The notes beneath the pieces were generated by a model. That model searched no databases. It saw nothing but the letters and a program-made list of their open reading frames with translations, and had not been told where the DNA came from. A stretch of 37,005 bases of DNA from positions 1 to 37,005 of the IMG/VR virus record IMGVR_UViG_3300029171_000027; one strand, given 5' to 3'. Made by a program: the position numbers and the translations under genes. Of this stretch, positions 21,929 to 28,214 are shown in pieces; positions within the stretch are counted from its first letter, which is position 1; each line of letters starts with the position of its first letter. The DNA comes from a virus (taxonomy: Duplodnaviria > Caudoviricetes).

Positions 21929-22228
21929 ATGAACAAAACTACATTGGTTCCTGCCGATGGCGTTATCATTATGAAAGATGATACTGGAGAGGGCGAAAAT
22001 AGGGTTATTAGTGTTGCAGATGAAAAAGGATTAGTTGGAATAGCTGTTGCAGTTAGCGATGAGCCTTTTACTTTTAACTTTGGTGGAAAACTTTCAACAA
22101 AGGTTAAGGTAGGCGACAAGATAGTTGTTGAAAGGCACAGCGTCCAGCACTTTCACCACGAGAGAACTCTATACAAGTTGGTTCGTTTTGACGCAGTCTT
22201 AGCAATTATAAAGGAGAGCAATGAGTAA
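21929..22228 (+). CDS. groES: Co-chaperonin GroES (divergent)
   Basis: P.D.V, G.AVAV, VKVGDKIV and VLAII motifs; overlaps groEL. Confidence 0.85.
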   Translation: MNKTTLVPADGVIIMKDDTGEGENRVISVADEKGLVGIAVAVSDEPFTFNFGGKLSTKVKVGDKIVVERHSVQHFHHERTLYKLVRFDAVLAIIKESNE

Positions 22229-23807
22229 ACTAGTTTTAACTGGTGAGCAAGCCAGAGAGAAAATGCTTATCGGTGTTAAAGCAATTAGCAGTATTGTTGG
22301 TTCCACTTTGGGCCCAAAAGGCTCAAACGTTGCTATAGATAGAACTTTCGGTTCACCCTTAGTTGTTCACGATGGCGTAACAGTCGCTCGACAACTCCAA
22401 CTAGACGATGAAGCGGCGAATATGGCGATAGATATACTAGTTGACGGTGCCTCAAGGACTAATGACGAGGCAGGAGACGGCACAACCACAGCAACGGTAT
22501 TAGCAGGTGCAATATACGAGCAGAGCAATAAGGTGATTAAGGCAGGTGCTAACTCAATGATGTTACGTAAAGGCATTGAAGAGGGTAAAAATTTGATGAT
22601 AGCCGAACTTACCAAAATGGCTCGGCCTGTCAAAAAAGAAGATATAGTCGAAGTAGCTACTATATCCGCTCAAGATAGTATTATTGGTCAATGTGTAGCA
22701 GACGCTTTTAATAGACACGGCGAACGCTCAATAGTAACGGTTGACGAGAATAGTGTCCCCATTGTTGACGTAGAGTATAGAGACGGTATGCAGTTTGACA
22801 GAGGTGTTATTAGCCCGTTTATGTGTAATATCCCAGAAAGAATGGAAGTCGACTTAAAAAACGTTAACATTTTAGTTAGTGATAAAAGGGTTGCTTGGCA
22901 AGAGCTGGGTGAGCTTATGGACGGCTTAATTAAAGCTCACAACACGAGACAGCTAGTTATTATTTGTTCAGGTCTTGATGAGATGACCCTGGCTAACATC
23001 ATAGCCAACAAGAAACAGGGTATCTTTAACGCTATTGTTGTTAATGCCCCTGGCTATGGAGACGCACAAAAAGCACTCTTAGAGGACATTGCCATCTATA
23101 CAGGTGGTCGATTTATATCCGCAGACAGCCGAGAGCTATTAAGCGAGATTGAGTTCACAGATTTAGGCTTAGTCGATAGAGTAGTGTCAGGTGAAAAGAA
23201 CACTTTGATTATTAGCAACAACGCTAAAAAGGAATTGTTAGAGGCTAGGATTAAACTTATAAAAGACACGCTAGCTAAACCCGATACATCAGCTGTTGCT
23301 CGTGAAAAACTAGAGGAACGCTTAGCCAAACTTACATCAGGCATTGCTATTGTTAAGGTTGGTGCTAACTCTGAGGTAGAGATGAGAGAACGCAAGGAGC
23401 GAGCAATTGACGCAATCTCAGCAGTTCGTTCTAGTATCGAGCAAGGTATAGTCGCAGGTGGTGAAACGGCATTGCTCAAGGCTTCTAGGGTCTTAGACGA
23501 GCTTATTGCCTCAACAAGTGACGACATTAAGATAGGCGTTCAAGTGCTACAGCGTGCTTGCCATAAGCCGTTTGAACTTTTAATGAGCAATTCAGGGTTA
23601 GACGCTGGTGCAATGAAAGCCGATGTCCTAAAAGACACTAAAAATAGAGGCATAGATGTTATGTCAGGTGAGCTATGCGACCTTATAGCTAAAGGTATTG
23701 TTGACCCAGTTAAGGTGACCAAGTCTGCTTTATCCAACGCAGTGTCAGTTGCCTCTCAGTTAATTACCACAGATACGCTTATTGTAGAATTACCAGAGAA
23801 GAAGTAA
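22221..23807 (+). CDS. groEL: Chaperonin GroEL
   Basis: TLGPKG, DGVTVA, GDGTTTAT, GMQFDRG, APGYGD, ERLAKL, GIVAGG, GIVDP; no GGM tail. Confidence 0.97.
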   Translation: MSKLVLTGEQAREKMLIGVKAISSIVGSTLGPKGSNVAIDRTFGSPLVVHDGVTVARQLQLDDEAANMAIDILVDGASRTNDEAGDGTTTATVLAGAIYEQSNKVIKAGANSMMLRKGIEEGKNLMIAELTKMARPVKKEDIVEVATISAQDSIIGQCVADAFNRHGERSIVTVDENSVPIVDVEYRDGMQFDRGVISPFMCNIPERMEVDLKNVNILVSDKRVAWQELGELMDGLIKAHNTRQLVIICSGLDEMTLANIIANKKQGIFNAIVVNAPGYGDAQKALLEDIAIYTGGRFISADSRELLSEIEFTDLGLVDRVVSGEKNTLIISNNAKKELLEARIKLIKDTLAKPDTSAVAREKLEERLAKLTSGIAIVKVGANSEVEMRERKERAIDAISAVRSSIEQGIVAGGETALLKASRVLDELIASTSDDIKIGVQVLQRACHKPFELLMSNSGLDAGAMKADVLKDTKNRGIDVMSGELCDLIAKGIVDPVKVTKSALSNAVSVASQLITTDTLIVELPEKK

Positions 23808-27227: not shown

Positions 27228-27565
27228 GAGCATATAGCGACGACTAGATTACATATTCGTCGAATCCGTAATTTACCCTATCAACAATACATGATGTAGT
27301 TCGGAAATTTTTATAATATAGCTAGGTTTCGAACCTGTTAATGCTTTTTAGGTAATACATGAGTAATACATGATGTAAAGGTTACCTAGATACCTGATGG
27401 CGTTATCTAGGTTTAAGGTAGTTTAACCTAGATAAGTATAGACAAACATTTACTACTAATCGGCTCTAAATTAGTAGCAATTAGTAGTTAAGCAGAAGTT
27501 CAGTGACTTAGAGCTAACAGGTTAATACCAGTGGTTTATGCAGGGTAAGCAGAAGTTCAGTCACA

Positions 27566-27701
27566 TAAACAAAACGACGCTTCTGGGTGAAAAAGAAAAC
27601 GTCGTTTAGCGCTGAAAAACCCTCGTCCGTTTCTTGGCTTAGGTGAATAAACTAACCAAGGGACATTCACCTTGGTCGGTTCTAGGGCAAGCCCCACGGA
27701 C
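27566..27701 (-). ncRNA. Candidate sRNA 4 with pseudoknot or alternative pairing and a terminator
   Basis: TGtTATAAT plus 6 nt; closing stem GTCCGT/ACGGAC; ACCAAGG/CCTTGGT; GGTGAAT/ATTCACC; terminator AAACGACG...CGTCGTTTT. Confidence 0.55.
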
Positions 27702-27720
27702 ACTCTGATTATAACAAAAT

Positions 27721-27810
27721 TAGCCCTTTATAAGCTAGACTCTGACGAGTGCAAGGCGTAAGCCTACTTTTACTTATGAAGGACTAATCTGTAGATAAAC
27801 TTCCAGGCAC
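27721..27810 (-). ncRNA. Candidate sRNA 3
   Basis: TATACT at 27820-27815; AGTGC/GCACT closing stem; AGGC-TTAC-GCCT hairpin. Confidence 0.35.
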
Positions 27811-27820
27811 TTTAAGTATA

Positions 27821-27877
27821 AACAAAAAACGGCCCGAGGTAAACCCTAGACCGTTTCTTGTATGCGAGGTTATCGCT
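27821..27877 (-). ncRNA. Candidate sRNA 2 (~55 nt)
   Basis: TATAAT at 27889-27884 plus 6 nt; GCGA/TCGC hairpin; terminator AAACGGTC...GGCCGTTTTTT. Confidence 0.5.
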
Positions 27878-27911
27878 AACTTAATTATACATCATATCCG
27901 CTTAAAAATGA

Positions 27912-27975
27912 CCTCTCCGACTACCCATATCTTTTCAGATATAGCAGAGCCCAGGGGCTCTTGTCATCGGAGAGG
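27912..27975 (-). ncRNA. Three-way-junction RNA element downstream of the tRNA-like RNA
   Basis: CCTCTCCGA/TCGGAGAGG encloses AGAGCC/GGCTCT and ATATCT-GAAA-AGATAT; the GNRA loop is on the - strand. Confidence 0.55.
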
Positions 27976-27988
27976 AACGTTTCGACTT

Positions 27989-28146
27989 TGCTATCGGTCA
28001 GGATTTACACCTGACATGGTAATCAACCTCGTGGACAGACTCTCTACCTGTAGGAGCTCTCACTCTTAAGAAGCCTGAGTTGATGTGTCGCTTCCTACCC
28101 CTGACTGTCGATTGACTCTAGCGTCTACTTATTCCGCCACGATAGC
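27989..28146 (-). ncRNA. tRNA-like RNA (Leu-type D arm; anticodon arm replaced by a long hairpin)
   Basis: Acceptor GCTATCG/CGATAGC plus A; TGGCGGAATAAGTAGACGC D arm; T arm GTCAGG-TGTAAAT-CCTGAC; TATAAT 6 nt upstream. Confidence 0.75.
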
Positions 28147-28214
28147 AACTTTATTATACATCAATCTACGTGGTTTCTACGTGTTTAAGCCACTTTTACT
28201 CACATTTATACACA

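Follow-up and report, generated by a model that had tools for sequence, protein, structure and literature searches.

A minus-strand gene for a predicted RNA of 158 nt in the window (the whole stretch of DNA analyzed, a complete virus record of 37,005 bases) belongs to a phage family of oversized, non-decoding RNAs that share only the body of a tRNA. The signature of the family is sharp: an acceptor/T helix in a 7/6 arrangement, a non-canonical elbow that covaries, and insertion slots in the D loop, the center, and the T loop. The class as such is known from T5 RNA1 and T4 species 1, whose function is unknown; what is added here is a family of large size whose elbow covaries, whose T loop offers a slot, and some of whose members occur in phages of B. 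subtilis. Members without annotation were found in the tractable Bacillus subtilis phages SPP1, phi3T, and SBSphiJ1, which makes the question of function directly testable, and the 7/6 geometry together with helices inserted in the T loop widens the range of forms known for a tRNA fold.

The gene content of the window is that of a phage (terminase, tail, endolysin, GroES/GroEL, RusA, and YopX). The tRNA-body RNA gene reads from 28146 to 27989, and its parts and nearest neighboring elements are as follows.

27989..28146, minus strand: whole tRNA-body RNA gene, 158 nt with the discriminator counted in
28140..28146, minus strand: 5' strand of the acceptor stem, pair probability 0.95-1.0, covarying over 111 clusters
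28121..28139, minus strand: U8-G9 and Leu-type D arm, with the A18 equivalent at 28130 and the position-19 equivalent at 28129 (A in the window, G in most family members)
28016..28120, minus strand: central insert of 105 nt replacing the anticodon and variable arms and terminating in the conserved A-U48
28117-28110/28028-28021, minus strand: insert helix 1
28109-28105/28038-28034, minus strand: insert helix 2
28098-28090/28057-28050, minus strand: insert helix 3
28079-28076/28062-28059, minus strand: terminal hairpin of the insert
27997..28015, minus strand: T arm with a 6-bp stem and a TGTAAAT loop, including G55 and U56 (at 28007)
27990..27996, minus strand: 3' strand of the acceptor stem (pair probabilities below)
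27989..27989, minus strand: discriminator A, with no encoded CCA after it; the A is not conserved in the family
28153..28163, minus strand: promoter-like 11-mer, with a -10 hexamer at 28158-28153 whose end lies 6 nt ahead of the RNA's first base
27912..27975, minus strand: three-way hairpin domain, rich in GC and located 14 nt downstream of the RNA, in a 256-nt region with z = -3.17 (0/200 shuffles)

A sequence-only reading had described, with no strand named, a 7-bp acceptor, a Leu-like D arm, and a 6-bp T stem, and folding of the minus strand agrees with it: the acceptor (7 bp), the D stem (3 bp), and the T stem (6 bp) form with pair probabilities of 0.86-1.0. The acceptor/T helix has the 13 bp that had been claimed, arranged as 7+6 and not as the 7/5 of decoding tRNA-Leu, and the discriminator A without an encoded CCA was correctly read for the window copy. 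The full 158 nt reach a minimum free energy (MFE) of -48.9 kcal/mol (z = -2.05; 7 of 200 shuffles are equally good), and the insert by itself is no more stable than its shuffles (z = -0.36). The insert helices of the sequence-only reading have pair probabilities of 0.2-0.55, and the fold that contains them, at -42.0 vs. -48.9 for the MFE, lies 6.9 kcal/mol higher. ARAGORN did not call the element with default settings, with introns allowed (a check that had been proposed), or with the score lowered to 90%, and Rfam gave no match on it at gathering thresholds or at E values up to 10.

The family was delimited by sequence patterns and not by a covariance model, so that its counts miss divergent members. 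In IMG/VR, a paired D-arm/T-arm pattern returned 12 loci, the D-arm pattern alone 77 loci (plus 13 GTDB contigs, chiefly in Bacillota and Patescibacteria bins), and the T-arm pattern alone at least 120 loci, with ∼1,500 stretches estimated. Of 120 loci located through their T arm only, 113 also have a D-arm start and a paired acceptor, vs. 3 of 120 when the upstream DNA is reversed, and five of the seven loci without a frame had <60 nt of upstream DNA; by these sequence counts, the frame is far above chance. Among window-type D-arm matches, 49 of 53 combine the family loop with a T stem of 6 perfect bp, as counted by eye. A pattern filter left 150 distinct frames, whose inserts form 111 clusters; the filter demands the 6-bp T stem and the loop, so these are not independent findings in the 111 clusters, and the statistics of the family are shaped in part by the selection of its members. 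Acceptor positions 2-7 are paired in 108-111 of the 111 clusters with all four pair types, compared with 96 at position 1, 65 at position -1, and 40-45 at positions -3/-4. The inserts, 23-232 nt in length, fall into 111 mutually unrelated sequence clusters, which together with the framed T-arm loci bears out the earlier claim of a conserved frame around a variable insert. The smallest inserts (L123, L128) consist of a short linker and one hairpin, thus the frame is the sole shared part. In 59 of 111 clusters (19-36 in shuffles), exactly 2 nt separate the last helix of the insert from the T stem, and in 92 (54-75 in shuffles) at least 3 nt on the 5' side of the insert are unpaired; this suggests a typical loss of the anticodon arm together with an expansion of the variable-arm slot. 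In the window subfamily, a single irregular helix occupies both the anticodon-arm and the variable-arm positions.

Members, none of them annotated as RNA, occur in the cultured phages SPP1, phi3T, SBSphiJ1, Leuconostoc Ln-9, Listeria LP-101, Enterococcus EFDG1, and Weissella WC29P3. The listed hosts of members are nearly all Bacillota or Tenericutes, with few Gram-negative matches, each covering one short piece. Of two phylum samples of 401 genomes each, one contained the full frame in 2 genomes and the other in 1, seed genomes counted in, which argues that it is not a core host gene; one short member used as query had no match in E. coli genomes. The T stem is preceded by an invariant ATG, which frequently forms a start-stop but is followed by other codons in many members and is taken as a by-product of the stem. 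A sister group (L017, L067, L073, and others) comprises oversized Leu-framed RNAs that share A18 with the family and differ in having a canonical T loop on a T stem of 5 bp.

The elbow of these RNAs is non-canonical. Most members combine AGG in the D loop with TGCAAAT in the T loop, and the window combines AAG with TGTAAAT. The middle purine of the D-loop triplet covaries with base 56 (where 56 is T, the purine is A in 32 and G in 1; where 56 is another base, it is A in 11 and G in 66; P = 3×10−17, Fisher’s exact test, a value that overstates independence given shared descent and the enrichment of A-type members by the D-arm scan). This covariation identifies the middle purine as the position-19 partner and places the invariant A before it at position 18, opposite G55. 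The resulting 19-56 pair is mostly G:C in the family and A:U in the window. The “AG where GG is usual” of the sequence-only reading therefore had the right bases in the wrong register, as the invariant preceding A is the position-18 equivalent and it is the next base that covaries with 56. U8-A14, A15-U48 (110 of 110), and the Watson-Crick 19-56 pair of tRNA-Leu are present, but its G18-U55 is not: A18 stands in 109 of 110 members opposite a G55 that the filter requires. Taken together, these patterns show, as far as sequence comparison can, that a tRNA-Leu-derived core (U8-A14, A15-U48, the 19-56 pair, and U54-A58) is under structural selection. The intact elbow that had been claimed is thus kept, but in non-canonical form, and the closest relatives of the window RNA even carry a helix in its T loop. 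The exact T arm of the window had no match in IMG/VR.

A T-loop insertion of 57-60 nt is found in both of these relatives (L233, minus strand, about 1230-1440; L234, minus strand, about 1018-1228), which belong to a subfamily of at least 15 distinct framed members with a helix of 43-70 nt between G55 and C56. A scan for such inserts returned 28 loci (L252-L279); with L233 and L234 included, 15 of 27 distinct matches had the frame by a strict test and 17 of 28 by a looser one. The T-loop inserts share a conserved 5-nt linker at their start and a closing helix, and their last base is G in 9, T in 5, and A in 1. A likeness of their start to the R element of group I introns was dropped given the length of 43-70 nt and a last G that is not invariant. 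In 10 frames (L102, two in L110, L121, L149, L150, L164, L165, L185, and L196), hairpins of 39-118 nt are inserted between the position-19 base and the remaining D loop. With D-loop, central, and T-loop inserts, the frame can be described as having three slots.

Of six metagenome matches, three are due to chance, one is a member with a different insert, and two (L233 and L234) have the insert of the window at 82-83% identity within unrelated flanks. In an alignment limited to these three sequences, all 15 cells of the invariant helix 2 are paired, helix 1 is paired in 22 of 24 cells with two breaks and no covariation, and helix 3 has both sides changed in 4 of 6 pairs, i.e., compensatory changes. 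The innermost helix is variable, and the register ACTC/GAGT (5 of 12 cells paired) is disfavored relative to CTCA/TGAG one base over (9 of 12). Of the four nested helices that had been proposed, the comparison thus recovers most, with the innermost shifted by one base. The unpaired loops of the insert are invariant across the three phages with their unrelated flanks. The aligned sequences indicate that the insert of the window is itself under structural selection, which, with the invariant unpaired loops, fits a working cargo. When the insert alone was searched in IMG/VR, two chance matches in coding DNA were returned. Inserts were not found outside frames, and no antisense target of more than 11 perfect nucleotides was found within the window genome.

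A canonical anticodon arm (5 bp, 7 nt) is found by a loose test in 2 of 111 clusters and is absent in the window, which together with the 7/6 helix supports the earlier idea of a non-decoding tRNA mimic. Y32-U33 after a 5-nt strand occurs in 12 clusters, three of which pass a loose splice test; the window lacks it. The discriminator is A73 in 63 of 111 clusters, compared with a 41% background of A (P = 0.001) and with 21 of 21 true tRNA-Leu genes in the same loci. CCA is encoded in 1 of 111 clusters, and the member lacks it in all seven loci where neighboring tRNAs encode it. In 74 of 111 clusters the RNA begins with U or A, whereas 21 of 21 true tRNA-Leu of the same loci begin with G or C. 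To judge from these comparisons, neither the leucine discriminator nor CCA appears to be under selection. The determinants of LeuRS comprise A73 and the 18-55/19-56 core, the anticodon arm being dispensable (PMC2377443). The family is likely uncharged, and the suggestion that the RNA could be charged finds no support at the family level; the window copy has A73, a LeuRS determinant, and might be charged.

T5 RNA1 (AY543070.1, 30501-30644), annotated as “tRNA-like stable RNA with unknown functions” alongside RNA2 and RNA3, resembles the window RNA in being oversized (144 nt), in its Leu-type D arm, acceptor, and T arm, in lacking an encoded CCA, and in the long helix that stands where the anticodon arm would be. 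It differs in that its D loop has the canonical GG, its T arm a stem of 5 bp and a TTC-type loop, and its variable arm is separate, as opposed to the 7/6 helix, the A18 opposite G55, the shifted 19-56 pair, and the extra slots of this family; judged by these features, the T5 RNA1-type oversized RNAs are of the same class and a different family. T4 species 1 (rnaC, NC_000866, 70908-71046) is likewise a stable phage RNA encoded within a tRNA cluster, its ends resembling those of a tRNA and its middle part being large, but has no Leu-type D arm and a canonical 5-bp T arm. Class II tRNA-Leu genes with A18 and a TGCAAGT loop (L021, L031, L033, L048, L079) share the D-arm sequence, A15-U48, and A18/G55, and differ by A73, a T stem of 5 bp, a D-loop 5' side that is one base longer, and the presence of a normal anticodon arm. 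Since A18/G55 occurs in 6 of 21 true tRNA-Leu of the same loci (a set enriched by the D-arm scan), a class II tRNA-Leu is the likely ancestor of the family.

The tRNA-like domain of tmRNA and the Y-RNA-like mimics such as YrlA have a long helix in the place of the anticodon arm. The window RNA differs from both in keeping a D stem and open acceptor ends and in having no Rfam match, and from tmRNA further in U3-A70 instead of G3-U70, the lack of a tag frame, and the lack of an ARAGORN match; no Ro60 gene was found among 73 neighboring ORFs scanned. YrlA is mentioned as a tRNA mimic in a passage of PMC12282133. Bacterial tRNA-Sec also has a 13-bp acceptor/T helix, but as 8/5; tRNA-Sec (8/5 or 9/4 with a UCA anticodon) and allo-tRNAs (a 12-bp branch as 8/4 or 9/3, with an anticodon) are unlike the element, which is 7/6, has no anticodon, and is not matched in Rfam. 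The non-7/5 geometries given for these tRNAs in the relevant section of PMC7609411 are 8/5, 9/4, 8/4, and 9/3, all with anticodons, and 7/6 is not among them. No description of a 7/6 family was found in the literature searched, a coverage that stops short of subscription journals. Six supplementary files of PMC10690425 hold no match to the family, which may still be among the 10,006 candidates of that study.

The genomic surroundings of members vary. Within 1 kb, tRNA or tmRNA genes are present in 36 of 110 loci, and all 75 such genes lie on the strand of the member; in the other 74 loci this interval contains no tRNA. In four loci, a gap of just 2-7 nt separates the member from a tRNA gene (on both sides in L037), and a member lies directly after tmRNA in L002 and L227. 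ROOL, rli62, or mcrA RNAs or tmRNA adjoin members in L174, L128, L226, L227, and L002. A complete tRNA-Ile(GAU) lies inside the frame in L066 (1494-1680) and in L091 (Lentilactobacillus sunkii), and a tRNA-Lys(UUU) call is nested inside the frame of L199. Among 1,396 ORFs near the 111 representatives, no recurring partner protein was found (the largest cluster covers six loci), and a Pfam search of the 73 longest of 90 neighboring ORFs returned generic phage genes.

In the window, the promoter-like 11-mer has a second copy at 27894-27884; two matches compare with 0.62 expected and are reached by 17 of 100 shuffles, a weak signal alone. Across the family, a -10-like hexamer lies 4-9 nt upstream of the frame in 10 of 111 clusters, vs. 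2 with a 12-nt shift. Such a hexamer would place the transcription start at or near the first base of the RNA; a sigma-70 scan of the window did not list the element at 28153..28163. The three-way hairpin domain possibly shares a transcript with the tRNA-body RNA, and is absent behind the closest relatives L233 and L234. The second 11-mer copy heads a terminator-like hairpin (27894-27820, minus strand), and the stretch 27230-27900 contains no ORF of 50 aa and several additional hairpins. Upstream, an adenine-methyltransferase-like gene occupies two overlapping frames (28821-28591 and 28649-28215, minus strand), as it does in both contigs compared. These contigs, which may stem from the very source of the window, show no variants or joints. 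The window phage encodes its own GroES and GroEL at 21929-23807 (plus strand). A blastn search of the region against cultured phages gave weak matches to the upstream methyltransferase and one 35-nt match in Gordonia phages, and none to T5.

We tentatively favor, at somewhat less than even chances, an explanation of the family as a non-decoding, likely uncharged tRNA-body decoy that ties up a host tRNA-recognizing protein, because the tRNA body is the only part shared and no partner protein accompanies it. Transcription would begin from the adjacent -10 element, or, in other members, host RNase P and 3' nucleases might cut the RNA out of transcripts of tRNA arrays; the RNA would fold into a tRNA-like corner, would be kept out of translation by the missing anticodon, the extra base pair, and the unselected 3' end, and would bind a host tRNA-recognizing protein, most plausibly a tRNA-attacking defense enzyme, for which the sequence-only reading had also suggested a bait. 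Anti-phage tRNases are common (PMC13056530). However, Schlafen, PARIS AriB, and PrrC cut the anticodon arm (PMC13056530), which is absent here, so the RNA could act on such tRNases only as a non-cleavable binder. Inserts in the T loop (at least 15 members) and D loop (10) would moreover crowd the flat elbow face used by most tRNA-binding machines (PMC4810234), and structural selection on the insert of the window also counts against a decoy. A broader version, somewhat unlikely as a whole, sees one of the most common phage RNA families without annotation as a purpose-made, translation-proof tRNA chassis (7/6 helix, elbow in a new register, three slots) that phages of Bacillota and Patescibacteria would use as RNA anti-defense against tRNA-targeting immunity, the slots tuning which host protein is trapped. 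The conserved insert fits the main rival, a natural tRNA scaffold, in which the frame would give end processing and stability and the slots would hold subfamily-specific cargo. The central insert retained in three phages with a covarying helix 3 and invariant unpaired loops, the conserved start and closing helix of the T-loop inserts, and the whole tRNAs nested in L066 and L199 all speak for such a scaffold. It is possible, on the doubtful side, since the minimal members are nearly cargo-free (23-31 nt), the inserts typically exceed their shuffles in stability by little (median z = -0.48; below -2 in 17 of 111), Rfam matched no insert in 60 loci scanned except the tRNA-Ile of L066/L091, and neither long antisense targets in the window genome nor inserts outside frames were found.

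Members that abut tRNA genes or adjoin tmRNA, ROOL, rli62, and mcrA, as well as the structured domain downstream in the window, would suit a cis signal whose tRNA shape supplies RNase P/RNase Z cuts and an exonuclease roadblock for neighboring RNAs. This second serious rival is unlikely given that two-thirds of the loci (74 of 110) have no tRNA within 1 kb, that the -10 element of the window points at the first base and makes a 5' cut unnecessary, and that the near-invariant D- and T-loop sequence goes beyond the known needs of processing. If CCA were added and the RNA leucylated (or serylated), it could serve as a sponge for an amino acid or a synthetase: the window has A73, which is weakly enriched in the family, LeuRS does without the anticodon arm, the last helix is placed 2 nt before the T stem like a Leu variable arm, and A18/G55 is shared with some true tRNA-Leu. 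With 48 of 111 clusters lacking A73, a first base seen in none of the 21 tRNA-Leu prevailing, CCA missing even beside CCA-encoding neighbors, and a helix that is one pair longer, we consider the sponge very unlikely. Introns in phage tRNAs do exist, as in Lak phages (10.1101/356790), and helices inserted at discrete sites, with both halves of the loop left intact by the T-loop inserts, would be expected of a tRNA-Leu gene whose unusual intron is spliced out to yield a decoding tRNA. The sequence-only reading had held an intron less likely, and rightly so: no predicted splice restores an anticodon arm in the window, which lacks Y32-U33, the smallest members are too short for an arm plus an intron, the T-loop inserts do not end in the invariant terminal G of group I introns, and the T stem would have 6 bp regardless of splicing, which makes this highly improbable. 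A decayed or neutral tRNA pseudogene is the least likely of all, as covariation extends to all stems and a tertiary pair over 111 clusters.

Further RNA-like elements were observed near the members of two unrelated Bacillus phages. A GC-rich element of ∼25 nt, without a match in Rfam, lies directly 5' of the member in SPP1 (L229, about 1468-1493) and in SBSphiJ1 (L230, about 2476-2498). The accessible text of the SPP1 genome paper (PMC6316719) does not contain the word “tRNA” and lists for this region an ORF 10 to which it assigns no function. RNAs without annotation that have an acceptor and a canonical T arm and no Leu-type D arm are located in L229 (about 1617-1662) and L230 (about 2890-2975), and the latter, in SBSphiJ1, resembles by eye the two ends of T4 rnaC.
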